In this document: piece by piece, positions 3,612 to 64,000 of the stretch
Numbering within the stretch: position 1 is the first letter of the stretch
Layout: every line of letters starts with the position of its first letter
IMG/VR virus record: IMGVR_UViG_3300026311_000012
Span: 35,912 to 99,911 of that record
Strand: one strand, 5' to 3'
Length of the DNA: 64,000 nucleotides
DNA from: a virus
Lineage: Duplodnaviria > Caudoviricetes
Notes under the pieces: generated by a model
Seen by the model: the letters and a program-made list of their open reading frames with translations, nothing else
Told to the model about the DNA's origin: nothing
Databases searched by the model: none
Program-made: the position numbers and the translations under genes

Positions 3612-4466
3612 ATGATTAAGAATATAACATTTGGAAGTGATCCTGAATATTTTCTTAAAAACAAAAATGAAAATATTATTTTATCAGCAATTCCATTTAT
3701 TAAAGGAGATAAGCATTCTCCTCAAAGTTTAGGAAATGGTTTTTATATTTTAAAAGATAATATTTTAGTAGAAGGTAATGTTCCACCAACGTCAGACCCT
3801 GTTAAGTTTATGAATAATTTAATAGAATTAAAAACAAGAATAAATAAATATTTTTCTTATATTAATTCTACTTTAACTGTTCATCATGATGATTGTTTAG
3901 ATATAGCTCCTCATTTTCTTACACATCCTGAAGCACTTATGTTTGGATGTAGTCCCTATATTAATGCTTGGGATGATAATGAACACAGAGCTAATGACTT
4001 ATCATCAGAAAATTTCAGAACTGCAGGATTTCATATACATATTGGATACGAACTTACTTCAGATAATCCTTTTACAAAAGAAATTTTTAATAAAATTATA
4101 GCAAAAGCTTTTGATATATTTGTTATAATTCCGTCTTTAGAAATTAAAGCCGATAGACGTAGATTTGAAAATTATGGGGGACTTGGCCAATATCGTAATA
4201 CTTCATATGGTGTTGAATGTAGGTCATTAGGGGGATTTTTTGTTGACGAACAATATCTTCCATGGGTTATAGAACAAGTTTGTAGAATGTTATCATATTT
4301 AAAAGACTATGGAAATGCTTCTTCAGTTTTAGCTATAGATAAACCAGTGGTTAAATTTATTTCTGAAGATACTGTAACATTTGAAGCTAATATTTATGAA
4401 GATCTTCAATTGAGTTACAGAGAACAATTGTTTAATGATAAATATAAAATATATGCAACTGTATAA
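3612..4466 (+). CDS. phiEco32-like COOH-NH2 ligase type 2
   Basis: GSDPEYF, DNILVEGN, FGCSP..NAW, RTAGFHIHIG, RR..YG..G..R..YGVECRSL. Confidence 0.92.
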   Translation: MIKNITFGSDPEYFLKNKNENIILSAIPFIKGDKHSPQSLGNGFYILKDNILVEGNVPPTSDPVKFMNNLIELKTRINKYFSYINSTLTVHHDDCLDIAPHFLTHPEALMFGCSPYINAWDDNEHRANDLSSENFRTAGFHIHIGYELTSDNPFTKEIFNKIIAKAFDIFVIIPSLEIKADRRRFENYGGLGQYRNTSYGVECRSLGGFFVDEQYLPWVIEQVCRMLSYLKDYGNASSVLAIDKPVVKFISEDTVTFEANIYEDLQLSYREQLFNDKYKIYATV

Positions 4467-8430: not shown

Positions 8431-9455
8431 AATTTAAAAATTTTATAAAATGGATGTCTGATATAGATTACAGAAATTTTCCAGGATTTAGTCAATCAAT
8501 TCTTAAAGGATTGGCAGACGATGGACCATCTTCTTTATTAGATAAAAAAGAAATTAAATCTACAGCATTAGAATTTGGATCACTAGTAGATATAATAATA
8601 ACAGATCCTGAAAACAGAGATAATATATTTTATACAAATTCTATAGAAAAACCTACAGCTAGTTTACTAGTATTGGCTGATGAATTATTAAAAGATCATT
8701 ATGCTCTTGGCTATACATATGAACAAATAACAGATAAAGAATATGTTATAGAAAAAATTAAAAATTTAGGATTATGGAGTAAATCTAAAGATGATAATTT
8801 ACTTTCGAAATTTGATAATGATCTATTTTATACATATATATATTCTGTTATTGATGCCGAAGGTAAAATAATATGTACTCCAGCTTTAGTAGAAGCTGCA
8901 GAACATTGTGCAGATGTATTACTTACTCATCCGTATACTAAAGAATTATTTGATGAAACAGATGATATAGAAGTTTTAAAACAAGTACCTGTCTTCTATA
9001 AAATTAATGGGGAAGAAGGAAAAGGTAAGATAGACTTATTGAGAATTGACCATAAAAAGAAACTGATTTCAATATATGACATTAAAACAGGTAGCGAATT
9101 ACCAAGCAATTTTGAAAATAGTTTTTATTTTTTTAAATATTATCTTCAAGTGATATCATATATACTGGGAGTTCAATACATGATTGAAACTATACCAGAA
9201 TTAAACGAATATAGTATAGATAAATTCAGATTTATTTATATAAGTAAAAAGCTTCCGGATACTCCTTGTATATATGAGGTTAATGAGGAATTACTTCTTT
9301 CATTCTTGGATGGATGGAGAGATGGTACAGGAAGATATAATAAAGGATTTATCCAATTAGTTGATGAATATAGTTTTTATATTAAAAATGGGATATACAA
9401 TACAGAAAAGAAAATATTGGATAATAATGGAATCTTAAATATAACTTTATCATGA
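8427..9455 (+). CDS. PD-(D/E)XK exonuclease (RecE/exonuclease VIII-like)
   Basis: SQSILK, FGSLVD, KGKIDLL, DIKT, YYLQ...Y. Confidence 0.85.
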   Translation: MKFKNFIKWMSDIDYRNFPGFSQSILKGLADDGPSSLLDKKEIKSTALEFGSLVDIIITDPENRDNIFYTNSIEKPTASLLVLADELLKDHYALGYTYEQITDKEYVIEKIKNLGLWSKSKDDNLLSKFDNDLFYTYIYSVIDAEGKIICTPALVEAAEHCADVLLTHPYTKELFDETDDIEVLKQVPVFYKINGEEGKGKIDLLRIDHKKKLISIYDIKTGSELPSNFENSFYFFKYYLQVISYILGVQYMIETIPELNEYSIDKFRFIYISKKLPDTPCIYEVNEELLLSFLDGWRDGTGRYNKGFIQLVDEYSFYIKNGIYNTEKKILDNNGILNITLS

Positions 9456-10000
9456 TAATGACAAAAGATATAGGAAATAAAGTTATGGTTAACAAAAGTA
9501 AATCTTATTTGTTACCACTATTAAATGAACATGTAAAAATAGAATATTTATATCTTTTAGAAAATACTTTTATTAATATCAAATCATATTTGGAATGTAT
9601 TGGGTTACTTTTCAAAATATCAGATGATATAAATTTTATAAGATATTGTAATAATTTGGAAGAACATCCTCTTTTTAAAGAATGTATATGTACTAAAAAT
9701 CATATGCTATTTGTTTTCCATTTCCCAGAACAATTTCTTAATGAATATAAGTATTTTAAACTAGGTAGATATTCAAGATTTTCGCATGATGCAAAGAAGA
9801 AAATAGTTAAGTTTTTTTCACATAATTATCAATACCCAGAACTTGTACAAGAGTTAGTACATATTCTTTATAAAAACCGTTCTAGAAAAGAAAGATTGGA
9901 AAAAGAATTGGGTATAATATTAACTGATGAAGATGAACTAACTAGTATTATAGACGAAGAAGAAGAAACATTTAAATCAGAAAATTATGAATATTTATGA
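9452..10000 (+). CDS. Hypothetical phage protein
   Basis: 182-aa ORF with overlaps on both sides. Confidence 0.8.
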   Translation: MIMTKDIGNKVMVNKSKSYLLPLLNEHVKIEYLYLLENTFINIKSYLECIGLLFKISDDINFIRYCNNLEEHPLFKECICTKNHMLFVFHFPEQFLNEYKYFKLGRYSRFSHDAKKKIVKFFSHNYQYPELVQELVHILYKNRSRKERLEKELGIILTDEDELTSIIDEEEETFKSENYEYL

Positions 10001-48793: not shown

Positions 48794-49936
48794 TTAAATA
48801 TTATTATATGTCGGAAGAGTTGTTGTAAGGGTTCCTATTGTTACCCAGTTGGCCCCACTATCAAAAGATACTTGAACAAATACCGAACAAGTACCATCAT
48901 CCACTATGGTCTCTGTTATCTCTACGTCGGTATTCGTAAAGTTAGCAGAACTACCTGCATTGATATGAATTTCTGACCCCAATAAAAAATCTTGTTGCCA
49001 TGTAAGGCTGGTGTCTTCAAATCTTAATCTTACTGCACAACCAAGAGCTGTTGTCATCAGGTTATTTATATCAAAGTCATAGTCAACTCTCATATGTAAC
49101 CAACCACCACCTAGATCATATGATGTAATACTATTCAATGTAGTTGTGAAAGTATCTTCAATATCTTCTGCCTCTCCCCATTTTCGGTAAGATATTATTT
49201 CGACTCCCCCTTCACATACTGCCAAAGGTGTTACATCATCGCTATCCATATATACTGGGCGAAAACATAAAGTATAATTATTTCCAATGGTTTCTCCATT
49301 TGCCCCTAACGTATATAATAAAGTAGCACTCTCTCCAGATGGTTCACTTAAATCAATATAGTCAGTAGTGTAAACTAAAGAATATGCACCAGCATTTACG
49401 CTTCTCCACACTTGTACTTTTACTCTAGACCAATATGTTTCATCTTCTACATTAGAAGATAATATAGGACAAAGTTTACCTCGCTGCAATCCACCTTTAA
49501 TCTCCATGTTTCCATATATCACGTATGTTGATTGATGAGGCTCTGCCCAATAAACGGGTTTTGTATTTTCATTATGATTATACCCAGCAAAATCCCCAAT
49601 CTTCCCAAATGCTGGAGCAGTATATGTAAAAGTAGGATTATCTGTACAGACTGACGGAAGAGCTACATCATATGCAGTTTGACCAGGTTTATATCTTGCC
49701 CACGCATTTATTTTACCAGATTCCCCACCAGTTACAAAAGTACCAGTTAAATTACATAGATCATATAATTCATCTGTAGAAGCTACTAAAACTGTTTTAA
49801 TATCCCCAGTTATGGATATATTAGCACAATCCAAGTAACCGGCTCCTATTGTTATACTAGCCTGTTCTGGAATATCAGCATCTGTTTTTAAATCAGAAGG
49901 CTGCCAGAATGTTGTGTATCTTCTTTTTGCTCCCAT
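48794..49936 (-). CDS. Putative tail/fibre-associated structural protein
   Basis: INAWARYKP, GDFAGYNH; beta-rich; downstream of fibre gene. Confidence 0.6.
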   Translation of the reverse strand: MGAKRRYTTFWQPSDLKTDADIPEQASITIGAGYLDCANISITGDIKTVLVASTDELYDLCNLTGTFVTGGESGKINAWARYKPGQTAYDVALPSVCTDNPTFTYTAPAFGKIGDFAGYNHNENTKPVYWAEPHQSTYVIYGNMEIKGGLQRGKLCPILSSNVEDETYWSRVKVQVWRSVNAGAYSLVYTTDYIDLSEPSGESATLLYTLGANGETIGNNYTLCFRPVYMDSDDVTPLAVCEGGVEIISYRKWGEAEDIEDTFTTTLNSITSYDLGGGWLHMRVDYDFDINNLMTTALGCAVRLRFEDTSLTWQQDFLLGSEIHINAGSSANFTNTDVEITETIVDDGTCSVFVQVSFDSGANWVTIGTLTTTLPTYNNI

Positions 49937-49938
49937 TC

Positions 49939-51660
49939 TTAAGGTGTTCCAAATGCTACAACATCATTTGCAGCGGTTATTAATCCTGATGAAGTTATAC
50001 TCAATATAACAGTAGCTCCATATTTAATCACTAACTTTCCGCTCTCTTGAACAATTGTAAAGTTGCTTGTCCTAAAAGTATCAGGAGTAGAATACTCTAA
50101 GTCGGTGCCGGAACTATTTACTCTAAGTACTTGTAAGGCAGATCCCCTCCCTAGTTTAACGAACTTTGTACCATTACTCTTCAATATATCTCCAACAGCA
50201 ATACTAGTATCGGTGATGATATTGTTGGTAGCATTTATTGTTTTATTAGTTAAAGCAACTGATTCAGAAGATGTAAAGTATGTACCAGAATGATTATGAC
50301 CGATTTCACTATACAGCCCGGAATGATTTCCCCATGAATATGATGTATTCCAGTTTGATATGTTAGTTGATGTAACTCCATAGGCAGCGTGAGCTACAAA
50401 TACTGGATCACTCTCAGCAGTAATCCCACTAGGAGGAATATTCTGCCAAGTTCCATCTTCTCTCAAAAATTTAGTAACTCCGATACCAAGCATAATCCCA
50501 CCAACTGAACTAGTTGTAGCAAGTGGCATTGATTCCCATATAGTAGGGGGCAACCATCCTGAATCAGACCATGCTTGAATATCATAATCTCCTGCAAATG
50601 GATATTTACATCTTATGTATTGATTAGGAGAAGTACCTTCTAATGTAAACCAATCGGATAATAAAGGTAATACATCTGTTTTAAGAAGAGCTGAGAAAGC
50701 AAATGCTGTTCCACTAGCGGCTCTAAGAAAGTGCCCAGTAGTTAACCCAGAAACAGTATGATACGTAGCACTATCTAATTGATGAGCTACTGGTGTTCTA
50801 GCATTAGATAATCTAGAATCATTACCAACACAAGCTGTTGCAGCTGATGATCCATATGCAACAGACACAGTACCTGTTTCTATATTTAATCCTGTTCCAA
50901 CTCTTAAATGCCCGGCTACAGTCCCATCTCCATATCCATAGGTAGAGGCATTTACCGCATGTGCAATAGGTGTCTGAGCATCAGCTAGCAACCCACTTAA
51001 TCCAGTAACAGATATTTCATCAGCTCCTCCGTTTTGATGAGTTGCAGCATGCGCATCTGGAACTCCAGCTGTAGGTATATCATACCATCCACGTATTCCA
51101 GATGAATTAGTCCCATATAATTTACTATTTCCTGGAGAAGCTACATCATTAACAAGTGATACAATTGTAGCTGCTTCAGATAAAGAATGTTGAAAAGTAT
51201 ATGCAGATGTATCCAATATCCAAGTATTGACGCCTGTCTTTCTAAGAAGTCCAGATGTGCCAGCTAAGGCGGCTATCGCAGTAAGGTCTCCATCTAATGC
51301 TTGATATAAGCCACTATGATTTCCCCAACTGTACGCAGTGTTCCAATTTGATATATTGCCAGATGTTATTCCAGCTGCCACTGATGCGATAAATACGGGA
51401 TCTGTTTCAGAAGTAAGATATCCAATTACAGAATGATCTCCCCACCCGTAAGCTGTATTCCAATGTGCAGAATTATCAACAATAGATGGACCCCATTCAG
51501 TTCCAGTTGACGTAACGATTCCTCCGTCAGGATAATCCGTAAGAATTCCTCCTCCGCCAGCTATTCTTCGTATTCTATTAAGAGAGAGATTAGAGCCAGA
51601 CGGAGTAGATTGATTACCTAATACTTTCGTACTATCTTTTAACTTTCCTAAACTAATCAT
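49939..51660 (-). CDS. Tail fibre protein with WNT(A/S)Y(S/G)WG(N/D)HS repeats
   Basis: Three WNTxYxWGxHS repeats, two E(T/S)DPVF, LDGDLTAIAAL, GNDSRLSNARTP; Gly/Ser/Thr-rich. Confidence 0.75.
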   Translation of the reverse strand: MISLGKLKDSTKVLGNQSTPSGSNLSLNRIRRIAGGGGILTDYPDGGIVTSTGTEWGPSIVDNSAHWNTAYGWGDHSVIGYLTSETDPVFIASVAAGITSGNISNWNTAYSWGNHSGLYQALDGDLTAIAALAGTSGLLRKTGVNTWILDTSAYTFQHSLSEAATIVSLVNDVASPGNSKLYGTNSSGIRGWYDIPTAGVPDAHAATHQNGGADEISVTGLSGLLADAQTPIAHAVNASTYGYGDGTVAGHLRVGTGLNIETGTVSVAYGSSAATACVGNDSRLSNARTPVAHQLDSATYHTVSGLTTGHFLRAASGTAFAFSALLKTDVLPLLSDWFTLEGTSPNQYIRCKYPFAGDYDIQAWSDSGWLPPTIWESMPLATTSSVGGIMLGIGVTKFLREDGTWQNIPPSGITAESDPVFVAHAAYGVTSTNISNWNTSYSWGNHSGLYSEIGHNHSGTYFTSSESVALTNKTINATNNIITDTSIAVGDILKSNGTKFVKLGRGSALQVLRVNSSGTDLEYSTPDTFRTSNFTIVQESGKLVIKYGATVILSITSSGLITAANDVVAFGTP

Positions 51661-53380: not shown

Positions 53381-54700
53381 CTAAAAAGGTTCAAGGGTTG
53401 TGCCTGCCTGAACTGAATGTATCCCATCAGTCAATCTCCCGTATATATGTGCAGTTGCGGGGATAAGATTAACAACACCATCGGTATCATCTCCCGATGT
53501 TTTACATTCAAATAGATATACCTTAGAAGTATCGCCTACACCAGCTCCTGTTCCAAAGGCCCCCTTGTGAGGAGCGTCCCCCGAAATGCTGTCATGGGCA
53601 TAGCAAGCAATATTCAGCGAAACCGCTTGCCCCACGTCGTGTACCTGTATTCCTTCCGTCCCATAATATTCTCCGTTTATTCTTAATATTATAGCCCCGT
53701 CGTGCGTTGTAGACCCATTATTTATATGGTTGTCTAATCCATAATTGTCTGTGCCACCACAATCCCTGCCCACACAGTTTATTTCTACTATTGAGGGACT
53801 ATATCCCCCCGCATCCTTGTAAGTAAAAGCGTCATCCCTCGCCCTTGCCGCTATACAATTTTCTAACCAAACATAATTATTGCCGCTAAAATTTATTAGA
53901 TTTGTTGTGGGTTTGTAAATAAACTTGCATCCCTTTGCCGTAAAGTGCCCTAATGTTGCAGTGTCGTTAGACACCCCTCCCGGACATATTACTGTTATGT
54001 TTTCCATATAATTATATTTCCCCTTATCAGGAGCAAATGATGCTATCGCTACCAACACGTCGTCTCTTTCGGGAGTTAAGTCATCAAACATTCTTACATA
54101 CAGAACGTCCCCAACACTATCATAATAACAAGTTCCGGCAGTAGCCTCAACTGCCGCCCGATTTGCCACAATGCTTAATGCAGTCGGATCGTTTGCGGCA
54201 TCTATTAAATTAGTGTCAACCATTACCTGAAATGCGCTTAATGACGCAGAGAACACACCACCACCCTCATCACTCCAACTTAATTCACTACCCAAATAAC
54301 CCCTGCAAACAAAGGATTCTCCATCAGAAATTATTTCCCTGTCCCCAAATATTATAGCTGAGGCAGTGCCAGCATAACACCCTGCCGATATGTATGCTCT
54401 ATCATAACTAACTGAATTTAATTTATTAAATGTCTTGTATGCCGTTTCAGCCGTATTCCCATTATTGGTGTCAAGTCCGCTTGTGGCATTGACATACTTA
54501 ACGGTAGGAGATGGTAATGTTTTTCTAAAGTCATCGATTGTATGACTTGTAATTGTCCAAACTCCCCCAACTTTATCAATGGTTAATCCCGGCAACATTG
54601 GATGTGTATATCCAATATCTGAAAGTAGTGTCGCCCAGTATGAACTCCAATTTATACCACTAGACATTCCAGCATTCCACTGTTTTAATAATATGCTCAT
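53381..54700 (-). CDS. Parallel beta-helix (pectin lyase-like) protein, putative spike/depolymerase
   Basis: YVNATSGLDTNNG....AYKT, DDAFTY, NNGSTTH; no signal peptide. Confidence 0.7.
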   Translation of the reverse strand: MSILLKQWNAGMSSGINWSSYWATLLSDIGYTHPMLPGLTIDKVGGVWTITSHTIDDFRKTLPSPTVKYVNATSGLDTNNGNTAETAYKTFNKLNSVSYDRAYISAGCYAGTASAIIFGDREIISDGESFVCRGYLGSELSWSDEGGGVFSASLSAFQVMVDTNLIDAANDPTALSIVANRAAVEATAGTCYYDSVGDVLYVRMFDDLTPERDDVLVAIASFAPDKGKYNYMENITVICPGGVSNDTATLGHFTAKGCKFIYKPTTNLINFSGNNYVWLENCIAARARDDAFTYKDAGGYSPSIVEINCVGRDCGGTDNYGLDNHINNGSTTHDGAIILRINGEYYGTEGIQVHDVGQAVSLNIACYAHDSISGDAPHKGAFGTGAGVGDTSKVYLFECKTSGDDTDGVVNLIPATAHIYGRLTDGIHSVQAGTTLEPF

Positions 54701-55104
54701 ACTGCAGGTTGTGTTATATTATACCAATAATTTACACCATCGTAAAGAAATGTAATAAGATTTATTGTTCCTAATGTATTAACATAATCCCCACTAAATG
54801 TATTTTTTGAAAAAGTAGATGCAAAAGTAGGAGTATTTGTTCCATTACCAGTCAATACATATATAGCTCCGCCACCAACAAGAGGTGCATATGTATTTGG
54901 AGATAATTCATCATCTGCTGTAGGAGTATGATGTACAACAGAACAAGCTGATCCAAAAGGAACAGATGTTGAATAAGGAACTATCCCAGGATATAAATCT
55001 TCTACATCACTTTGAAGATTATTATATTCTTTTGATTCAACAACCTTGTTATTAACAGCATTAGGATAAGCTGTATTTGTTGATTTTATTTGTTTACTTT
55101 TCAT
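54697..55104 (-). CDS. Small fibre-associated protein
   Basis: N-terminal EYNNLQSDVEDLY helix; C-terminal NLITFLYDGVNYW. Confidence 0.6.
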   Translation of the reverse strand: MKSKQIKSTNTAYPNAVNNKVVESKEYNNLQSDVEDLYPGIVPYSTSVPFGSACSVVHHTPTADDELSPNTYAPLVGGGAIYVLTGNGTNTPTFASTFSKNTFSGDYVNTLGTINLITFLYDGVNYWYNITQPAV

Positions 55105-55112
55105 TTTAATTA

Positions 55113-57107
55113 TTAATTATTGTATCCTGCTAATTTGCCATTATATTTACCGAACTTCGTACCCACTTTGCCAAAGACTGAGACTGCTGCGGGAGGCTCG
55201 CCTCCACTTTCCGTCACCGTACCTACACCAAGCAGAACAAGGCCGGTAAATGGTTGTAGTGAGATTTCCCCCGAATACGATGCGTTAGTAATATCAACCA
55301 TCGAGGCAGACAGTGTCCAATACTTTACAGCTTTTGTGTTATTATAGATAAAATGTATATCATTAGTTGAGCTGACACTGACGGGACTGCCGTAGGAGTG
55401 GGCATCGTCCGGTGTGACCAGCGCCTTCCATTCTGCCAGCGTATGGTATCCGGAGGCGTAGTAAAAGTGGTTATCATCGTCGATCGGCCTGGCGTAGTAG
55501 TTGTAGTCGAAAGCTCCCCAGGCTTTTATTTCGTCGGTGGTGTAAATGCCAGATCGGAGGCTTACTTGTGCTGATGCCTTTGCTATCAGCTTATTGTTAT
55601 TAAATGTTATGCCTGTCGAGACTCCGGTTCCCCATTTCAAGAATTCAGCCTGTCGCTGGTTGTCAAAGAAGAGGTTCCCGGTGATCGTGTGGTTATCTCC
55701 GTAATGGATCAGCAGACCCGCTCCCCTGCATCCGGCGACGATGTTGTTTGTTATCGAGGCCCCGCTTCCTCCGGCATCGTAGTAGATGCCTCTTGGTATG
55801 ATAAGCCAGCTCTCCGATCCAATTCCGGAGTTCAGCACTATGTTCTGGTTGATCGTTCTGGTCCCGGTACTGCTATTGCAGTAGATCCCGCCTCCGTCGT
55901 CGATCACCATGCATGGGTAATTGATGAAATTCCTGTAAATAGAAAACGACGAGATGCTGGAGCTGTTGATTCCACTCCAGGCTATGTATTCGATGTTGTT
56001 ATATTCAACCGTTGTGTTCGTACTGCCTATGTAGATCCCTGTTGCGTGTGGCATGCGGGCTGCCCCTTTTATCATTCCGATGTGGGAGATGTCGTTATGT
56101 GTGACTGTGATGTTGCTCCCTACCAGGTAAATGCCGTAGTTGCTGTGGCTTATCATATTGTAGTGAAATTCCGAATAGCTGCCACCACCATCCTCGATGG
56201 CTGATCCTCCTGCGAAGCTGATGTCGCAATTCTTGACCTGGTTGTAGCGCGTTGAACTATTATTGTGGATTGCGTGGCTGATGGACCCCGTCAGTTCCAG
56301 GTTGGTGATGTGTATGTAGTCGTGTGCGTTGTTATAAATCAGTTTATTCAGCGTGGCTATCTTCACATCCTTCCCGGCTGGGTTCCCATAAACGTAGAGC
56401 TTACCTGCGCTGGTGCTATGATACCATTCGTTGGTGGTGGTGACGCATCGCAGATCGTTCTGTATGAAATAGCGGCGGTTGTCTTCTGGCGTTCCCGAGT
56501 ATGAGCAGCTGCCCCAAGTAAGGACCCCTCCGGAGGTGTGGTCTGTTATAACGCAGCGGTCGACTATCCAGTACTGTTTATTAATGACGATATCGGCTCC
56601 GGTCCAGTCTGGGCTGTCGGGCAGTTCTGGGTCTGTTATGGTACTGGAAGTGGCGGTGGTGTATGTCAGCCATTCGGCATCCGGATAGCGACCCATGCCT
56701 ACCGGCACTCCGTCCATGATCACCATATTCGTCTGCGCCTCCGAGCTGCTCACGGTCGCTTCGTAGATGCTCCCGCTATAAAGGCTCCAGCTCGTGAGTG
56801 TTGTGAAGCCGGTGATGATAGGCTTCTCTCCTGTCCCATAGGCTCCTATGACGATTGGGTTCCCGGCGGTTCCTGGCTCGGCTACCGTGATGGTTCCGTA
56901 CCAGGTATCGCCCCTCTTGAATAGGATGCTGTCCCCTGGGGCGAATGTTCCGGCTGCCCAGAAGCTGTTGACCTTTGATATGGTTGCCCAGGCTGCCTCG
57001 TCGGAGGTCCCTGCTGCCTGGTCATCACCTCCGTTCTTAATGTAATAGTTAGTGGCTGATGCGGTCAGCGTGATTAAAATAAACGGTATGAACAATAGTC
57101 TTTTCAT
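55113..57107 (-). CDS. Right-handed beta-helix protein with Sec signal peptide
   Basis: MKRLLFIPFILITLTASA|TNYY; PGDSILFKRGDTW, DGGGIY, GIYYD; GC-rich. Confidence 0.82.
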   Translation of the reverse strand: MKRLLFIPFILITLTASATNYYIKNGGDDQAAGTSDEAAWATISKVNSFWAAGTFAPGDSILFKRGDTWYGTITVAEPGTAGNPIVIGAYGTGEKPIITGFTTLTSWSLYSGSIYEATVSSSEAQTNMVIMDGVPVGMGRYPDAEWLTYTTATSSTITDPELPDSPDWTGADIVINKQYWIVDRCVITDHTSGGVLTWGSCSYSGTPEDNRRYFIQNDLRCVTTTNEWYHSTSAGKLYVYGNPAGKDVKIATLNKLIYNNAHDYIHITNLELTGSISHAIHNNSSTRYNQVKNCDISFAGGSAIEDGGGSYSEFHYNMISHSNYGIYLVGSNITVTHNDISHIGMIKGAARMPHATGIYIGSTNTTVEYNNIEYIAWSGINSSSISSFSIYRNFINYPCMVIDDGGGIYCNSSTGTRTINQNIVLNSGIGSESWLIIPRGIYYDAGGSGASITNNIVAGCRGAGLLIHYGDNHTITGNLFFDNQRQAEFLKWGTGVSTGITFNNNKLIAKASAQVSLRSGIYTTDEIKAWGAFDYNYYARPIDDDNHFYYASGYHTLAEWKALVTPDDAHSYGSPVSVSSTNDIHFIYNNTKAVKYWTLSASMVDITNASYSGEISLQPFTGLVLLGVGTVTESGGEPPAAVSVFGKVGTKFGKYNGKLAGYNN

Positions 57108-57111
57108 GTTA

Positions 57112-58374
57112 TCAGTATAAAAGGATCATTGGGCTTGCAGTGTTTGATGAAAAGCTGGTCATCCCAAAAGAGGCGGGCAGATCCGTTTTGTCGGTTATAA
57201 AGCCTCGAAGCCTTACAGAATTTCCCATGAAGCTGCTCTGGTTCATTAATGTCATTGCCTCTCCAGCATATATTGATGGAGCCTGTGTCTGAGCGGAGCT
57301 ATTGTAAAGAAGCCCGATATAATATGCTCCTTTCGTCGCCTGATATGGTGAAGAAAACGGCTTATCTACCCATGCGTATTGCGCACCTGTCCAGGTGTCT
57401 GCGTCGTTTGGAGTGGAGGCGACAAGCGTGGCTGTCGTTCCGGATACCTTATAAAGACCAATACGGTTATTGGCATCAGCCGTATAACTTGCATTTTGGG
57501 CGTTGCTGAATCTCACGCCTGTTAAGGTCGTATCTCTTGGCAGATAAATCGCTACCACGAACATGTCGCTATCCTGGAGTACTAGAGAGGTTGAAGCATC
57601 CATGTCGCAAAAAATGGGGGCAGCGATTATCTTTCCTCCGAAGGCTCGGAGGGCTTTAGCAATGTCAGCTCCCCATCCTGCCATGTTCGTTATAAGTTGC
57701 TCTGCGGAATACCTGGGGAGATAATTGCCTGGTGCATATCCTGTGCTATCCTTTACTGCAATTACTTCTTCAGCTCCTGCAAGATATACGTCCATAGTAT
57801 CATGAATATCTTGTGGTGTAGCATATCCTGCACTTGAATGGTCTCCCCAGTTATATGCTGTATTCCAATTTGTTGAATTATTAGTAATAGTTGTACCCCA
57901 TGATGTGCCATTTACAACTAAAGGTATTCCAGAACCAGTAGGATATACCATTGATCCACCACTAACTTCAGATAATAATGCATAATTTGTTAACATTGAA
58001 GCAGTGTCTGACTTTAATAAATAGCTAGACAATGATAAAGCTGAAGATAAAGTACCACCATTTATTGTCGGAAGATTTGTTATCTCTAGATCAGTAAACC
58101 ATCCTTTTGTTAATCTTGATGAAGTAGTACCAATAGAACCTGTGCCAAGTAAACTATTTGAACCTAACGAAAAATTACCACCAGACAGTGTAAGTAAATT
58201 GCTACTTTGTTGAAGTATTATATCATTATTATAAAAATTTATGGATGCACTAGTACCATTAAGATATAATACAGGGGCTATTTTTTCAATTGTTATATTA
58301 GTTTTTGATACTTGTTGAGCACATGCTGCAAAAGTAAATACTAATAAAGTTATAATAAATATTATCTTTTTCAT
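57112..58374 (-). CDS. Fibre-like mosaic protein with Sec signal peptide (start moved to MKKIIF)
   Basis: MKKIIFIITLLVFTFAACA|QQ; DTASMLTNYALLSEV and NWNTAYNWGDHS modules. Confidence 0.78.
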   Translation of the reverse strand: MKKIIFIITLLVFTFAACAQQVSKTNITIEKIAPVLYLNGTSASINFYNNDIILQQSSNLLTLSGGNFSLGSNSLLGTGSIGTTSSRLTKGWFTDLEITNLPTINGGTLSSALSLSSYLLKSDTASMLTNYALLSEVSGGSMVYPTGSGIPLVVNGTSWGTTITNNSTNWNTAYNWGDHSSAGYATPQDIHDTMDVYLAGAEEVIAVKDSTGYAPGNYLPRYSAEQLITNMAGWGADIAKALRAFGGKIIAAPIFCDMDASTSLVLQDSDMFVVAIYLPRDTTLTGVRFSNAQNASYTADANNRIGLYKVSGTTATLVASTPNDADTWTGAQYAWVDKPFSSPYQATKGAYYIGLLYNSSAQTQAPSIYAGEAMTLMNQSSFMGNSVRLRGFITDKTDLPASFGMTSFSSNTASPMILLY

Positions 58375-58375
58375 A

Positions 58376-58645
58376 TTATAATGTAAATTTATGTATATTA
58401 CTCCAGTCTGTATCTTCAACAGAACCTACTCCAAAACCTAAGGCTGTTATAGTTTTATCAATACACAGTGCCCCAGATCTCACTCCTATACGAAATGTTC
58501 TATTTTCAAAATAAAAATATTCTGGTTCAACTGCTACACTATATAATTCGTCAAAATTATCATTTGTTTTATCAAATGCATTACGCAAAGTATCACCAGT
58601 ACCATCATTTGCTATAGTTCCAATTCCAATAACTTGCTTACTCAT
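58376..58645 (-). CDS. Small structural protein with ANDGTGDxLR motif
   Basis: IGTIANDGTGDTLRNAFDKTNDNFDELY resembles N-termini of phage baseplate/fibre proteins; first gene after promoter 2. Confidence 0.75.
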   Translation of the reverse strand: MSKQVIGIGTIANDGTGDTLRNAFDKTNDNFDELYSVAVEPEYFYFENRTFRIGVRSGALCIDKTITALGFGVGSVEDTDWSNIHKFTL

Positions 58646-58663
58646 ATTTCTAAATTATTCTTA

Positions 58664-58734
58664 CAAAGTTACATAAAACTTTATAATCCAACAAATATTT
58701 ATATACATATTAGACCAATGTATAAACTTTACTT
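58664..58734 (-). promoter_or_regulatory. Late promoter 2: Bacteroidota -33/-7 plus the same 17-bp box
   Basis: Minus strand AAGTAAAGTTTATACAT-N16-TAAATATTTG-N20-TAACTTTG. Confidence 0.85.
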
Positions 58735-58750
58735 AAACGTAGTCTAAAAT

Positions 58751-59074
58751 TTAATTATAGAAGTCTTTCTTCCTCAAAATCCATTCAACAATAATACTTT
58801 CAATAAGTAATATTAACATTGGCCCACTTATAGCTCCAACTATCCCCCAAAAAGCATCATAGAACTGAGGTTCTCCAAACCCCATCCATTTATCAAACAC
58901 TATTTCTTTTGAAAGAGCCACTATAATAGCAATACCTGTAGCAATTCCTGCATCCCAATTATACATTTTAGATGCAACCCACCTAAACGGATTAAATTTA
59001 ATTCTAAATGATAATAATACAGAAAAAGATATTATTAAACATATCAAAAAATGCAAAAATTCGTCTTCTCTCAT
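58751..59074 (-). CDS. Small multi-pass membrane protein
   Basis: Three hydrophobic segments; H...KE..D....D pattern. Confidence 0.7.
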   Translation of the reverse strand: MREDEFLHFLICLIISFSVLLSFRIKFNPFRWVASKMYNWDAGIATGIAIIVALSKEIVFDKWMGFGEPQFYDAFWGIVGAISGPMLILLIESIIVEWILRKKDFYN

Positions 59075-59085
59075 AACTTTATATT

Positions 59086-61410
59086 TTATAACCTTATTAT
59101 TGCAGTTCCAAATTTCACCATCTTCTGTGTTCCCTCTGACGGTGGATCAACAGGTTCTTCTTCTTGTGTAACCGTAACAACCCACTCCTGAGTAGTCGTA
59201 CCATCAAGTGCCGTAATGGTATATGTCTGTGGTGAGGTAAAGTCTCTCGATACTCCACTCAGGGGATATATCGTGGCCCCGTAGGACAGCGTTATCGTCG
59301 GGGTAAGGTTTGTTATGTCTGCGGTGTAAGCTACCTCTATCGCTACCGTGTGGTTAGTGGCGTTGATCGTAGCTACTCCAGTCTGCTCGGAAAGAGTAAA
59401 GGTGACAATATCGGTTGCGGTTTCATCGGCTTCTACCACCTCCGTAACCGTACCGGCCCCAAGCAGAATAAGAGATGTGAAAGGCTCTAAATAGATTGTG
59501 TCGCTATATGACACATTGGCAACATCTACCATCGCCGCAGATAGCGTCCAGAATTTAGTAGCTGTGCTATCATTATAAATGAAATGTATTTCATCATCAC
59601 TACTTACCGATGTTGGCGAATCTGCTGAGTTAGCATCTTGCCCACGGGCAGTACGCAAACCAGCTAGATTAGTTCCAATATGATTGTAAACAATATATCC
59701 ACTTGCATCATTATCAATCGGAGAACAATAATAATTATAATCAGTTACACATGTAGCTATTAAATCAACATCAATGTCAATTGATAATTGTGATGACGTT
59801 CTTGCAAAAAATATATTTCCAGTGACATCGACATTTGCATGACTACTAGAACTTGTAATTCTTATAGCTCTTTGATTATCATAGAATGTATTATTCTTTA
59901 TAGTTCCGCCTGTATTACCATTACCTAGATATCCAAAATAATAAAATGTATCATTCCCAGCTATTATATTATTTTCCCATCTAATTCCAACAGAAGAATT
60001 ATCACAATATATTCCTGCAATTGCAGCTGATGTAGTTGATGTTCCTTGAATACTTCCAATTCCATCTAATATAATATTATGATGAACATATCCAATTCTT
60101 CCAATTGTTCCATTATATGTATAGATTCCGCCAAGATCTCCAAGAGACATAATATAATTACTTATTTTATTATATCTTATTTCGGTTTTATCTACTTCAA
60201 ATCTTATTCCTATGCCTCCAATGCTATCCAATGTATTATATTCTATAATTGAAGATGTATTTGTACCGCTTGTATAATGATAATTAATACCTGGAATTCC
60301 TGAATAAGAATATGGTTCTCTCTGTCCAGGAAATAAGCCTATTCTATTTAGTGTATTATGACTAATTGTTATGTTAGTAAATTGATGTTGATTATTTGCA
60401 TTCCATATACTTATTCCAGCATTAGTAATATCTTCAAAATCATTGTAAGTAAACTGACACCCATTAGAAGTATTACCACCAGATCTTGATCCTCTTATGC
60501 CATAATATGAGAATTTTATATTACATTCGTTTAATATAAAATATGGAGTAGCATTTAAATCAATCGCAGCAACAGAAAATCCCTCAAATGATAAATTATC
60601 TACCGTTATATAAGATACATTTTCAGCATATAATCCTAAGTCTCTTGACGCTACTCTTACTGTATGATCGCCTGGAGTCTCCGCACCGAAGTACATATAG
60701 AATGTATTTGTTGATTGATCATGATACCATTCCCCATATGTATCTAATGTCTCTAGATCATTCTGTATATAAAAACCAAACCCCGGCTGTAAATTACTAG
60801 CTGCTGCAGCAAATATTATTGTACTTCCACTATGACTACTTATTTTTCTTACATTAGTTGCATATAAATTAATTCTTAAAACAACATCCGCCCCAGTCCA
60901 ATTATCTATGGATGAGTTTAATGTCGCATCTGTTAATGAGTTATTACTACTATAACTATCATATAATGTATAACCACTATTTGGAGATCTTCCCATTTCA
61001 GTATTAACTCCATCAACTGATACAACAAATGGTCTTGATTCACAAGTTACTGATGCAGAATATATTCCACCGCCCTCTGATGTCCATGAACTTATGGTAG
61101 TCCAGCCCGATATCAACGGTTTATCTCCAGTTCCATAAGAACTTATAGTTATAGGACTGCCTAACGTTCCACTTTCATCTGGTAATAATGTAGCATCATT
61201 AAACGTATCCCCACATCTAAAATATATATTATCACCGGGAGCAAATGTTCCAGCAGCCCATTCAGTATTCACCTTACCAATGGTAGCCCATGCCGTTCCG
61301 TCTGATGTACCAGCCGCCGCATCACTACCCCCGGTCTTCACGTAGTAATTAGTAGAATATAAATTACCAAAGGCGAAAACAAATATTAATATAGTTAATA
61401 TTTTTTTCAT
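59086..61410 (-). CDS. Right-handed beta-helix protein with Sec signal peptide and C-terminal Ig-like domain; paralog of 55113..57107
   Basis: MKKILTILIFVFAFGNLYS|TNYY; WAAGTFAPGD; DLGGIY; LTPTITLS.GATI.P.SG...DFTSP..YTITA.DG. Confidence 0.82.
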   Translation of the reverse strand: MKKILTILIFVFAFGNLYSTNYYVKTGGSDAAAGTSDGTAWATIGKVNTEWAAGTFAPGDNIYFRCGDTFNDATLLPDESGTLGSPITISSYGTGDKPLISGWTTISSWTSEGGGIYSASVTCESRPFVVSVDGVNTEMGRSPNSGYTLYDSYSSNNSLTDATLNSSIDNWTGADVVLRINLYATNVRKISSHSGSTIIFAAAASNLQPGFGFYIQNDLETLDTYGEWYHDQSTNTFYMYFGAETPGDHTVRVASRDLGLYAENVSYITVDNLSFEGFSVAAIDLNATPYFILNECNIKFSYYGIRGSRSGGNTSNGCQFTYNDFEDITNAGISIWNANNQHQFTNITISHNTLNRIGLFPGQREPYSYSGIPGINYHYTSGTNTSSIIEYNTLDSIGGIGIRFEVDKTEIRYNKISNYIMSLGDLGGIYTYNGTIGRIGYVHHNIILDGIGSIQGTSTTSAAIAGIYCDNSSVGIRWENNIIAGNDTFYYFGYLGNGNTGGTIKNNTFYDNQRAIRITSSSSHANVDVTGNIFFARTSSQLSIDIDVDLIATCVTDYNYYCSPIDNDASGYIVYNHIGTNLAGLRTARGQDANSADSPTSVSSDDEIHFIYNDSTATKFWTLSAAMVDVANVSYSDTIYLEPFTSLILLGAGTVTEVVEADETATDIVTFTLSEQTGVATINATNHTVAIEVAYTADITNLTPTITLSYGATIYPLSGVSRDFTSPQTYTITALDGTTTQEWVVTVTQEEEPVDPPSEGTQKMVKFGTAIIRL

Positions 61411-62279
61411 TCTACCACCCCACTTCCTATTGCATCCATATATTCTTCAATAATATCAAAAAGAGTTGCGGCTTCTTCATCAGTAATGCCATCCATTAAA
61501 AATGCAATAGATAATACATCTCGTGAAAGACCACCAACCGATCCATTGTTGTTATTCGCACATAAATACATTATTTGATTTGGCAGGTTATCACTTTCTG
61601 AACTACCTGTACCAATAGAACTCCCATTATGATACAATTCTGAATCAGTATTTCCTCTTCGTGTTCCTACCGCTAATCCTCCTCCCTCAGTACGGTTTGC
61701 ATCAAGATTAATATAATTACATAATCTTACTCTCATGACTGGGCCTGTTGTAATGGGCATCATAAATATCATTTGTGTACCATCAGATACACCAAAAACA
61801 ACGCTAGCTAAATGATCACTAGTAATAGTATATGCTCCTATGGTTAAGTCGTCTAATCCTATATTATCAGCATTTGTTGATGGGTTATAGCCAGTAGTTA
61901 AATATCCAGTAGTACCGTCTGAACTTACTCCTTCATAGCTACTGAAATTTACTGTAGCGGCACCAACTGTTGCATCAAATGTTCCAGGGGTAATCCAATT
62001 TATATATGCCTCACTCCCAGTATTAAGTTCTGTTGCAAACACATAAAATAAATCCATCCTTGCCCAATAACCCCCATCTACCAAAGCCTGAACCATTTTA
62101 TTCTGATAACCTTTAGTTACTAGTGAAGGCTCAGTTGTCATAGCCGCAAGAACAGCATTATATTCATCACAATAAGTTATCGTTTCTACAGGTGCAACAT
62201 AATTTGAATACCTCAATATCTGCCCCTCAACCGAGGCAAGGATAAAGAGTGCTGTTATAAGTAAGAGTAGTTTCTTCAT
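61407..62279 (-). CDS. Beta-sandwich (lectin/LamG-like) protein with Sec signal peptide
   Basis: MKKLLLLITALFILASVEG|Q; LVDGGYWARMDLFYVFA; DGTTGYLTTGYNPS. Confidence 0.7.
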   Translation of the reverse strand: MKKLLLLITALFILASVEGQILRYSNYVAPVETITYCDEYNAVLAAMTTEPSLVTKGYQNKMVQALVDGGYWARMDLFYVFATELNTGSEAYINWITPGTFDATVGAATVNFSSYEGVSSDGTTGYLTTGYNPSTNADNIGLDDLTIGAYTITSDHLASVVFGVSDGTQMIFMMPITTGPVMRVRLCNYINLDANRTEGGGLAVGTRRGNTDSELYHNGSSIGTGSSESDNLPNQIMYLCANNNNGSVGGLSRDVLSIAFLMDGITDEEAATLFDIIEEYMDAIGSGVVE

Positions 62280-62282
62280 GGT

Positions 62283-63998
62283 TTATAGTCTCCTAATTTG
62301 AGCATTCAGTTGTAAATTCCATTCCTTTGGTCGGTATCCTTCCGGCTGGTCGGCCCTTAACTCTATCCATACATCATTTCCAGGGGCAATAGTTGACTGA
62401 TTGTTTGGAGTGAAAGTTGTCTGATTGTCCCCACATGACTGAGGACCAGTAAACAATGAGTCAACCGGTGTAGCTGTCATGCGATTACCATAGTACACAT
62501 TGAACAAAAGAGAGTCGTTTTCGGAAATAACAATGTTTCTGAGATCAACTATGTGAAGTGAATCCTGTGTCACCTTGAATGCTCCGAATCCTCTCTTTCC
62601 TTTCGCAAAAGCAATAGAATCGGCCGGCTCTCCTATTCCTGCACCAAAGACAAAGTATGGCGATGTATCATCAATCATCCTTGCTTCAGATCGTATCACA
62701 TCAGCGGTATCGTTTATCCATCCCTGTACCTGGGACATGATAGTAAGATTACCTCCACCGGCAGGAAGAGAGTAACTTGCATTACCATTGGTCTCAAAAG
62801 TAAGTCTGTCATCCCCGGTAAGCCTTAATGATCCTCCGTTAAGAATAAGACTGTCAATAGATGCCTCCTCGATCTCTGAGCGTAAGGCATAATTGGTAAG
62901 CATAGTGGCTGTATCGGCAACTTCGACATACAATGGTCTGAACACATCAAGACTATCATTTATCCATCCCTGAACCTGTGACATTAGGGTAAGCGTACCT
63001 CCTCCAGATGGGAGACTGTATGACCCATCTCCGTTTGTGTAAAAGGTAATATCATCAGCAGTACCTTCGCTCCCATTTAACGTAATGGTTCCAGAATTAA
63101 GTGTAATTCCAACAACTCCTCCGCCACCGCCTCCGACTGATCTTGCGTAAGCTTTAGTCGCAAGGGTATCTGTAGTATGATCAAAATGGAATGCATCATC
63201 AATATTGATAGAATCAGCAAGCACACCAATAATACTGTCTGTCCTTGTCTCAAGTATAGCAAAATCGCTTGCACGAAGATAGTTTGTAAGCATACTTGCA
63301 GTATCGGCAACAGCAACATATAAAGGTCGAAGTACATTCAAACTGTCTGCTATCTCATCTCTTACGTCACCTATGACAACATCTCCAGTTCCAACCTCGC
63401 TCAAAAGAGCATAGTTTGTCAACATTGAGGCAGTATCCGCAACCATAACCACCAATGGCCGAAGAACATTAAGACTATCTGCAATTTCATCCTGCACAGC
63501 TCCAATACCTATGCCCCCTTCAGATAGATCGGTTAGTTTAGCATAAGTATCAAGCATGGCCGCAGTGTCAGCCACGGCAACGTAAAGAGGTCGCAGGGCA
63601 TTTAGGCTATCCGCAATCTCATCACGAACATCCCCTATTGAGGTTCCGGCATCTCCAAGCTCGCTTGTTAAAGCATAATGAGCAAGCATACTGGCTGTGT
63701 CAGAAACACTCACTTTTGCAGTAAGAGCAGAAGCGAGCTCTCCATTGCGGGTATAATTCCCAAGCATAGTCGCAGTATCCGAAACATTTACCTTGGCCGC
63801 CAGAGCAGAGTTTAACTCCCCGTTGCGGGTATAATTGGCAAGCATTGAGGTAGTATCTGACTTCAGTAGCCGGAGTTGAATATCCGCAGAATAATTGGTA
63901 ATGCTGTCACCATACTCCGAAAGCGTGACCTCAATAGAATCTAAACTCCCATTTACATTATCAAAATTAGCATCTATGACAGCTCTAACTGAAGCCCA
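62283..63998 (-). CDS. Repeat-rich fibre-like protein dense in D-(S/T)-hydrophobic motifs; 5'-truncated
   Basis: Frame stays open from 63845 to the window end (WASVRAVIDANFDNV...LLKSDTTSML); repeated DT(A/T)xML.NY modules. Confidence 0.8.
   Translation of the reverse strand, partial: WASVRAVIDANFDNVNGSLDSIEVTLSEYGDSITNYSADIQLRLLKSDTTSMLANYTRNGELNSALAAKVNVSDTATMLGNYTRNGELASALTAKVSVSDTASMLAHYALTSELGDAGTSIGDVRDEIADSLNALRPLYVAVADTAAMLDTYAKLTDLSEGGIGIGAVQDEIADSLNVLRPLVVMVADTASMLTNYALLSEVGTGDVVIGDVRDEIADSLNVLRPLYVAVADTASMLTNYLRASDFAILETRTDSIIGVLADSINIDDAFHFDHTTDTLATKAYARSVGGGGGGVVGITLNSGTITLNGSEGTADDITFYTNGDGSYSLPSGGGTLTLMSQVQGWINDSLDVFRPLYVEVADTATMLTNYALRSEIEEASIDSLILNGGSLRLTGDDRLTFETNGNASYSLPAGGGNLTIMSQVQGWINDTADVIRSEARMIDDTSPYFVFGAGIGEPADSIAFAKGKRGFGAFKVTQDSLHIVDLRNIVISENDSLLFNVYYGNRMTATPVDSLFTGPQSCGDNQTTFTPNNQSTIAPGNDVWIELRADQPEGYRPKEWNLQLNAQIRRL
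62690..63870 (-). repeat. Nested intragenic coding repeats
   Basis: 2x 26-aa NYTRNGEL.SAL.AKV.VSDTA; 3x IG.V.DEIADSLN.LRPL.V.VADTA.ML; 2x TF.TNG..SYSLP.GGG.LT.MSQVQGWIND. Confidence 0.9.
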
Positions 63999-64000
63999 GG

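Follow-up and report, generated by a model that had tools for sequence, protein, structure and literature searches.

Two mobile cassettes of predicted Sec-exported fibre, lectin and glycanase-like proteins in the fibre block of a crAss-like phage

Assembly of tailed-phage particles is regarded as a wholly cytoplasmic process, an assumption that underlies both the prediction and the engineering of receptor-binding proteins; why, then, would a run of genes in the fibre block of a tailed phage encode proteins that begin with signal peptides? The question is raised by a 64,000-nucleotide stretch of DNA (the window; positions 35,912–99,911 of IMG/VR record IMGVR_UViG_3300026311_000012, Caudoviricetes), in which a preliminary description had pointed to four such proteins between positions 55113 and 62279. 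Our comparisons indicate that the block comprises two copies of a mobile cassette that encodes a fibre-like protein, a ConA-like lectin (290 aa) and a beta-helix glycanase: copy 1 runs from a 626-aa lipoprotein fibre through the 290-aa lectin to a 774-aa beta-helix protein, and copy 2 from a 420-aa fibre to a 664-aa beta-helix protein.

The window forms the final 64 kb of a contig of 99,911 bp, whose 127-bp terminal overlap points to a genome of 99,784 bp that is circular or permuted. The phage is crAss-like, with Bacteroidota as its hosts. The genome backbone has 25–34% GC and encodes a giant protein of 4,506 aa and a virion structural protein of 1,430 aa (phrog_28748), a homolog of which lies at the same position, upstream of the giant protein, in the crAss-like genome G002; Crass_capsid and CrAss_Ring domains are present in relatives of the window phage. 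Late genes occupy the minus strand from past 64 kb down to 17.6 kb, and lysis genes are interspersed through the fibre block, as in crAss001. We rejected proximity to the lysis genes as a sign of a role in lysis, given that crAss001 has the same fibre-then-lysis layout and its fibres are signal-less.

Export signals on five consecutive genes

Signal peptides were called by a simple heuristic (a K/R n-region, a 10-residue Kyte–Doolittle window of at least 2.3 and no acidic residue) together with comparison among homologs. The four open reading frames (ORFs) and their N-termini, each with n-, h- and c-regions, are as the preliminary description had them. In cassette 1, the predicted exported lectin (61407–62279, on the minus strand like every gene described below for which a strand is given; signal peptide at residues 1–19, nucleotides 62223–62279) begins MKKLLLLITALFILASVEG/QIL, in which the slash marks the predicted cleavage site, and the glycanase-like right-handed beta-helix protein of 774 aa (59086–61410; residues 1–19, nucleotides 61354–61410) begins MKKILTILIFVFAFGNLYS/TNYY. 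In cassette 2, the predicted exported fibre-like protein of 420 aa (57112–58374; residues 1–19, nucleotides 58318–58374) begins MKKIIFIITLLVFTFAACA/QQ, and the predicted exported, glycanase-like right-handed beta-helix protein of 664 aa (55113–57107; residues 1–18, nucleotides 57054–57107) begins MKRLLFIPFILITLTASA/TNYY. All four have K/R at positions 2–3, a maximum 10-residue hydropathy of 2.8–3.5 and no acidic residues. The cleavage sites ASA/T, ACA/Q and VEG/Q fit the rule of small residues at −3 and −1, and LYS/T is weaker at −3; the residue at +1 is Thr in both beta-helix proteins and Gln in the 420-aa and 290-aa proteins. Gln at +1, or Ala, Ser or Gly ahead of TNYY, marks these signals as of the Bacteroidota type.

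Across the 99.8-kb genome, the heuristic flags seven of the 35 ORFs of at least 250 aa, and five of these seven are consecutive (permutation p = 0.002). The fifth member of the run is the first gene of cassette 1 (62283–64000), which encodes the 626-aa fibre-like lipoprotein; its 5′ end falls outside the window, at the beginning of the circular genome, and the ORF wraps the circle and closes across the terminal junction. The protein has a lipobox start (...IIFGVTGC), beginning MKKIKLIKIIFTLLIIFGVTGC and continuing into a gp9/10-N-like motif (GGTWASVRAVIDANF), and in the relative on contig L007, in which it is 71–89% identical, the lipobox VTGC is retained. A lipobox reading of the 420-aa protein (FAAC) was rejected, the Cys being missing in most relatives and Gln20 invariant. 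Elsewhere in the window, a 638-aa ORF (4435–6351) is also signal-like (MINIKYMQLYNIILIYLIIGIF...) and may be a mis-called start within an amidoligase cluster.

That fibres normally lack signal peptides, a premise of the preliminary description, is borne out: none of crAss001 gp21–26 has one, nor do any of 88 gp9/10-N-type proteins in 80 IMG/VR loci, all 88 of which carry the gp9/10-N motif 11–12 residues after the Met. As a baseline, 39 of 56 fibre loci are free of any signal-bearing ORF of at least 200 aa. The proposal that Gln at +1 reflects signal peptidase (SPase) I of the Bacteroidota type also holds, with the residue present in all 24 relatives of the N-terminal module (N-module) of the 420-aa protein and in all four close relatives of the 290-aa protein. 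Signal-peptide proteins that obey the Bacteroidetes Q rule for SPase I substrates have been described in Porphyromonas gingivalis prophages (Matrishin et al. 2023, PMC10367356). Given that the signals are conserved in phage homologs and that the block is phage DNA (see below), export is the sensible reading, and the site of action of the five proteins is very probably outside the cytoplasm, away from where phage particles are assembled.

Signals are conserved or cleanly deleted

The 664-aa protein has 229 homologs, and the signal state was scored in the best 120 of these. Ninety-nine of the 120 were scored as signal-bearing and five more proved so by eye (three had been mis-scored, and two gene calls were truncated inside the signal), and seven begin M-A-T/E-Y-Y exactly at the predicted cleavage site. 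No decayed hydrophobic core was seen among the 120; that is, loss takes the form of clean deletion, and the signals, for whose conservation the preliminary description had proposed a check, are either intact or cleanly removed rather than relics. In the 420-aa family, the h-region sequence is free to vary while Gln at +1 is constant in 24 of 24 proteins. From the absence of decayed forms among the 120 homologs, and from the invariance of this Gln despite a varying h-region, we infer that the signals are under selection and functional.

Beta-helix homologs with 63–73% identity and a signal are found on two unrelated phage backbones (L001, of 52% GC, and L004, with Clp-protease and capsid genes), and signals are retained at 63–92% identity on three different phage backbones; the crAss-like contig L002/L003 has the clean signal-less form. 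IMG/VR scans with the fibre N-module and with the lectin recovered the whole cassette in a recurring order: a fibre-like protein whose cleavage site is immediately followed by a gp9/10-N-type motif, a lectin of approximately 290 aa ending YMDAIGSGV, and a beta-helix protein. All three genes carry signals in the window phage and L007, and in L012, L017, L035, L036, L067, L071, L073 and L077; the all-signal cassette thus occurs on at least eight independent uncultured phage contigs, with crAss-like and siphovirus-like backbones among its carriers. In crAss-like L075 and L002/L003, the cassette is wholly signal-less, each Met lying at, or close to, the position where the mature exported forms begin (for example, MATYY). 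The presence of signals is therefore a trait coordinated across the whole cassette (all genes or none), which implies that the three proteins must share a compartment.

The two flavours of beta-helix protein differ at their other end as well. Five of the seven signal-less forms end in N[KR]?[FY][SAG][IV][LI]-COOH, compared with none among the other 113 homologs listed (almost all of them signal-bearing), which suggests that the flavours differ in C-terminal partner or destination. This tail was noted in P0003, P0009, P0023, P0064 and P0077, as well as in L075 (6460–8394), and loosely resembles a K-phi-K-phi-phi-stop tag on early genes of the window genome; the signal-bearing phage forms end instead in tandem Gly/Lys hairpin-like motifs (for example, ...LLKSGSVLLKSATGKALKLNN). 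Both types of C-terminus look like docking or address tags. Cys counts and conservation, inspected with periplasmic disulfides in mind, show no clear difference between signal-bearing and signal-less forms.

Direct searches with the block returned little. A nucleotide search against GenBank phages gave no match; by tblastn (E ≤ 1e-5 or 1e-3) against 50,697 GenBank phage records, the 420-, 774- and 626-aa proteins were unmatched and the 664-aa protein had only two weak N-terminal matches, to uncultured faecal contigs. A species-genome scan with the 664-aa protein gave two weak N-terminal matches and nothing else, and IMG/VR single-protein scans with it and with a neighbouring 439-aa protein gave nothing. 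An Atlas look-up returned scores below 0.9, which serve as leads only.

Folds and architecture of the cassette proteins

Both beta-helix proteins match PF13229 above the gathering cut-off of 25.9 (53.1 bits for the 664-aa protein and 38.5 bits for the 774-aa protein), and the former also has a weak match to the GH136 lacto-N-biosidase 6kqs. The mature N-terminus is in each case the helix cap TNYY, as in homologs with a type IX secretion system (T9SS) domain on bacterial-size contigs, and no N-terminal particle-binding or adaptor domain precedes the beta-helix in either protein. Many homologs of the 664-aa protein, including those on long bacterial-size contigs, carry the T9SS sorting domain PF18962; neither this domain nor an equivalent was matched in any scanned block protein, and the C-terminus of the 664-aa protein is short and Gly/Lys-rich. 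The 774-aa protein has a conserved extreme C-terminus (...KMVKFGTAIIRL) and, at residues 664–746, a DUF5018-like insert that scores below the DUF5018 cut-off. This 85-aa Ig-type domain is absent from the 93%-identical relative at L007 10001–12049, and the last 22 residues are retained on both sides.

The 290-aa protein ends YMDAIGSGVVE, and its stop codon overlaps the start of the 774-aa gene (ATGA). Its AF2 model (pLDDT 82, pTM 0.81) places a jelly roll behind two helices, and Foldseek matches the model to a trans-sialidase lectin domain (probability 1.0, E 1.5e-6, TM approximately 0.5) as well as to CBM40 and pentraxin, with E values of 1e-6 to 1e-4 across the three; the model thus assigns the protein to the ConA-like lectin or LamG fold. 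Some of its homologs have a signal and some do not, and its distant matches among GenBank phages (22–35% identity) are parts of large signal-less tail proteins of rhizobial, cyanobacterial and Flavobacterium phages.

The 420-aa protein consists of the signal, the invariant Gln20, a conserved shaft module to residue ~115, a WNTAYNWGDHS junction and a jelly roll at residues ~240–420. Its N-module (signal, Gln, then KTNLTIEKxAPxLYLNGT...GWFTDLEITN) is common to more than 100 proteins with swapped and very different C-terminal domains, which is a tail-fibre architecture. A scan of 185,579 species genomes recovered the module from no Bacteroidota, and we take the fibre and lectin families to be phage families rather than captured host genes. 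The modelled C-terminal domain aligns with the Bxb1 tail tip (9d93; VIA-align Z 16.4, rmsd 2.5 over 168 residues), with a chain of the cyanophage A4 capsid entry 9jwb (Z 15.4) and with the phi812 baseplate (Z 11.2), and its BFVD matches are actinophage minor tail proteins; residues 240–420 are thus predicted to form a CBM-like receptor-binding jelly roll of the tail-tip type. Domains related to it occur behind a gp9/10-N anchor motif in P0128 and P0124 (55–75% identical) and in P0185 (39%), the motif being preceded by an N-terminal transmembrane segment in P0128 and P0185 and by a lipobox in P0124.

The motif WNTAYxWGxHS, which the preliminary description had found in common between this protein and a signal-less fibre (49939–51660), is indeed present in both, at residues 170–182 of the 420-aa protein (nucleotides 57829–57867) and three times in the signal-less fibre. 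Just after it, the composition of the 420-aa gene switches, from 21–36% GC at residues 1–180 to 46–53% from residue 211, and the 664-aa gene has 48–58% GC throughout. In addition, the homolog P0125 shares 98% identity with the 420-aa protein limited to residues 1–185, and P0122 shares 93% limited to residues 192–420. The switch at the motif and these one-sided identities indicate that the shared 'module' is a junction for swapping binding domains. The 420-aa gene is, on this evidence, a chimera of a low-GC resident N-module and a high-GC imported receptor-binding domain, with the import running on through the whole 664-aa gene; the imported segment (55113–57800, 46–58% GC against the 25–34% of the backbone) would comprise the receptor-binding half of the 420-aa gene and the entire 664-aa gene, including its signal peptide. 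The closest long homolog context of the 664-aa gene is L001 (52% GC), and the import that brought in the distal half of cassette 2, together with the signal of the beta-helix gene itself, appears to be recent and to come from a phage or host of approximately 52% GC.

A predicted exported glycan-targeting set

Assuming that the signals work as predicted, we suggest, with moderate confidence, that the two mobile Sec-export cassettes encode an exported glycan-targeting accessory set that acts outside the virion. Late in infection, the host Sec machinery would translocate the proteins unfolded and SPase I would cut them, except for the 626-aa protein, which would instead be cut by signal peptidase II and lipidated. 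The proteins would fold in the periplasm and, having no T9SS sorting domain, would be held in the envelope until lysis. In the envelope and the lysate, they could bind and cut the host surface polysaccharide (capsule, exopolysaccharide (EPS) or O-antigen-like chains) during its synthesis; stripping receptors from the infected cell and from debris might aid release of progeny, exclude superinfecting phages and supply a diffusible depolymerase for neighbouring cells. The particle itself would be equipped with the signal-less fibres encoded alongside. Glycan-directed action is suggested by the folds (that is, the PF13229 beta-helix, the ConA-like lectin and the CBM-like tail-tip jelly roll).

Several observations favour this exported set. 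One of the fibres (626 aa) is a lipoprotein, and P0124 is a lipobox form with the binding domain of the 420-aa protein; signal-less fibre candidates are retained beside the exported cassette both in the window genome and in the 86-kb, 88%-complete crAss-like genome G002; the beta-helix proteins have no particle-binding domain, and their C-terminal tail differs between signal-less and signal-bearing forms; and exported phage proteins that follow the Q rule have a precedent (PMC10367356). In the window, the candidates for cytoplasmic fibres are the products of 53381–55104 (a 135-aa protein and the 439-aa hydrolase- or tail-fibre-like protein; phrog_16653 hydrolase, 1e-38, and phrog_32409 tail fiber), a signal-less fibre of 573 aa (49939–51660) and a signal-less protein of 380 aa (48794–49936).

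Other observations weigh against it. The fibre-like proteins retain shaft modules; the gp9/10-type virion-anchor motif that comes after the cleavage site in L017 and L036 keeps the register it has in signal-less fibres, which would be easier to explain if the fibres still dock on the particle; the C-terminal domain of the 420-aa protein is closest to virion tail-tip domains; and the conserved signal-less 89-aa anchor protein encoded just upstream (see below) is a possible virion-side adaptor. Moreover, a periplasmic enzyme has no obvious access to the finished capsule, and export itself is read from sequence through heuristic signal calls.

Alternative explanations

Several of the observations that count against the exported set also serve its strongest competitor. 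In this alternative, which the preliminary description had preferred, the proteins are true virion appendages that fold, and are partly glycosylated, in the periplasm and dock after the holin has opened holes or in the lysate. Accordingly worded for a wider group, a sizeable set of Bacteroidota phages, including crAss-like phages, would have fibre, lectin and depolymerase Sec-exported, trimmed, partly O-glycosylated and attached after holin action through signal-less adaptors such as the 89-aa gp9/10-N protein. We regard this as possible but doubtful. The fibre-type architecture of a conserved N-module with swapped C-terminal binding domains speaks for it, as do the anchor motif that L017 and L036 have immediately behind the cleavage site, in the register of signal-less anchors, the nearness of the binding domain to the Bxb1 tail tip and phi812 baseplate, the homologous signal-less cassettes in crAss-like fibre blocks, the conserved 89-aa signal-less anchor gene adjoining the 420-aa gene and the position of the cassette in siphovirus-like L017, directly after the tape-measure gene and one gene for a 612-aa protein. 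However, one fibre would be lipid-anchored at the very end that is needed for docking; both complete or near-complete crAss-like genomes examined contain signal-less fibre candidates, and the exported set is therefore not needed as sole receptor binder; the tail of five of the seven signal-less beta-helix forms is missing from the 113 other listed homologs, nearly all of which bear signals; and the beta-helix proteins have no N-terminal particle-binding domain. A literature search returned no tailed-phage example of such assembly. To our knowledge, no tailed phage attaches appendages made in the periplasm. A secreted capsule-remodelling set, which had been offered only as the second choice, appears at least as likely as virion appendages joined at lysis.

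Glycosylation bears on the same alternative. The four O-glycosylation sequons reported for the 420-aa protein (DTA, DTM, DST and DTT) are present, but are not enriched (four observed against 2.0 expected; 77 of 500 shuffles reach four), and counts of D[ST][AILVMT] in the 664-, 774- and 290-aa proteins are 1 against 2.5, 3 against 4.1 and 0 against 1.4 expected, respectively. With counts at or below chance, the sequences give no indication of the suggested periplasmic glycosylation in the four proteins, and O-glycosylation was rejected as a trait general to them. The 626-aa lipoprotein alone is enriched (22 sequons against 4.2 expected; 0 of 500 shuffles), and its dense sequons would suit a glycosylated appendage.

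A second alternative holds that these are auxiliary metabolic genes, with which the phage makes the infected cell secrete proteins that bind and cut glycans and so nourish the host while a long or persistent infection lasts. The family relationship of the beta-helix proteins to T9SS-domain proteins on long bacterial-size contigs (35–45% identity), the lectin and CBM-like folds alongside and the weak GH136 glycosidase match would fit; by contrast, the location in a late fibre and lysis block with tight coupling to fibre-type modules, the lack of T9SS or surface-lipoprotein signals for reaching external substrates and the absence of the fibre N-module from Bacteroidota among the 185,579 species genomes, which argues against a host foraging set, make it unlikely.

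It is slightly less probable still that the hydrophobic N-termini are relics of capture from a host, or uncleaved inner-membrane tethers that do not lead to export. Most of the beta-helix family looks bacterial and a recently imported high-GC segment contains the 664-aa gene, as capture would have it, but the 120 scored homologs include no decayed signal and only clean deletions, Gln at +1 is invariant, signals persist at 63–92% identity on three phage backbones, the fibre and lectin families appear to belong to phages, and the small residues at −3 and −1 suit cleavage. Misassembled host DNA within the phage contig, to which the 46–58% GC at 55.1–57.8 kb in a 25–34% GC genome might point, is very improbable, given that the independent IMG/VR contig L007 shares the synteny of cassette 1, the chimeric 420-aa protein has a counterpart of 98% identity (P0121) on another contig, the change in GC occurs within an unbroken ORF and coincides with a known fibre junction motif, and the genes are co-directional and overlapping, with the circle closing through the 626-aa gene. 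The relic, host-DNA and misassembly readings, which the preliminary description had named as what could overturn its proposal, were rejected on signal conservation, L007 synteny, P0121 and circular closure.

Relation to known systems

The exported set that we favour has partial counterparts in several known systems. The tailspikes and depolymerases of crAss001 (gp22–gp26) and P22 (gp9) are likewise right-handed beta-helix enzymes and fibres in a fibre block beside lysis genes, and the crAss001 layout is identical; however, proteins of that type have no signal peptide and bear N-terminal particle-binding domains, whereas every member of the window cassettes has a signal and the beta-helix starts from the mature N-terminus. 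Bacteroidota T9SS proteins with PF13229 and PF18962 belong to the same beta-helix family (35–45% identity) and have a signal peptide followed by a T[ND]YY helix cap; the phage copies differ in having no C-terminal sorting domain but a short Gly/Lys-rich tail, and in travelling with a lectin and a fibre gene. The 89-aa protein matches the T4 gp9/gp10 N-terminal anchor (PF07880) above the cut-off, and relatives carry this motif after a signal peptide.

Exported proteins that act in the envelope are familiar from phages: the T5 exclusion lipoproteins Llp, Cor and Ltp and the Sec-exported endolysin Lys44 of phage fOg44 get there through the host Sec or Lol pathway, and Llp also shields progeny from receptor in debris. 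These are small receptor blockers or wall hydrolases, whereas the window encodes multi-gene sets of fibre, lectin and glycanase. An exported beta-helix glycanase of tailspike fold is likewise represented by WceF of Pantoea stewartii (PMC7949094), described as acting on the EPS of its own producer; WceF is encoded by a bacterial chromosomal gene outside any cassette, whereas the window genes are phage-borne and in a cassette. The P. gingivalis prophages are the nearest case, as Bacteroidota phage proteins with SPase I signals that expose Gln, and were read as envelope modifiers (PMC10367356); that case concerns five genes of unknown function in temperate phages, whereas here a whole cassette of fibre-, lectin- and tailspike-type proteins belongs to a crAss-like phage. 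Our literature search found no paper that pairs Crassvirales with signal peptides and none that describes signal-bearing fibres of Bacteroidota or crAss-like phages, the prophage study being nearest.

The wider interest lies in a fibre–lectin–glycanase cassette that would exist in exported and cytoplasmic flavours and pass between Bacteroidota phages with unrelated backbones, among them the crAss-like phages, which are dominant in viromes of the gut and elsewhere. Action in the envelope, if true, would represent a new kind of phage-encoded receptor-destroying or release system and would bear on what is concluded from genomes about depolymerases, host range and superinfection exclusion; presence of the proteins on the particle, if true, would represent a new assembly route. 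The 'tail fibre' calls made by annotation pipelines overlook the export signals on these genes, and the paired flavours offer a natural experiment on the purpose of the signal.

Neighbouring genes

Two small genes separate the cassettes. The signal-less 89-aa protein (58376–58645), encoded 2 nt upstream of the 420-aa fibre gene, consists of a T4 gp9/10-type N-terminal anchor (PF07880, 33.6 bits) and a conserved C-terminal part of 50 aa. Its eight homologs (84–90 aa, 64–78% identity) are conserved over the whole length, on which ground we rejected a decaying stub; the protein may be a virion-side adaptor. An IMG/VR scan with this family matched just the ubiquitous 36-residue anchor motif and was used as a baseline. 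The 107-aa protein (58751–59074) has approximately three hydrophobic membrane segments in its hydropathy profile and no match in Pfam or PHROG; in L035, the gene immediately upstream of the signal-bearing fibre (9237–9572) encodes a homolog (37% identity over 83 aa, E 7e-12). Nothing informative came from PHROG and NCBIfam scans of the neighbouring genes. In L001, L035 and L067, the beta-helix gene is followed by a second small membrane family (FSFWIKDNW); this family and the 107-aa protein may be holins or cassette-specific membrane partners.

In L017 (9794–15008 of IMGVR_UViG_3300033489_000234), the siphovirus-like carrier, only the three signal-bearing cassette genes lie between the lysis genes and the genes for the tape measure and a 612-aa protein; the contig is only 52% complete, and the phage may have other fibres. 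In crAss-like relatives, a signal-less protein of 172–709 aa with the N-terminal motif K(F/L)L(F/Y)LWTG.YDGD(N/D)L is encoded upstream of the exported fibre, either directly or with one small membrane-protein gene between, at positions 293–811 of the window phage genome (outside the window), L012 2144–3298, L035 7451–9289 and L071 2555–4684.

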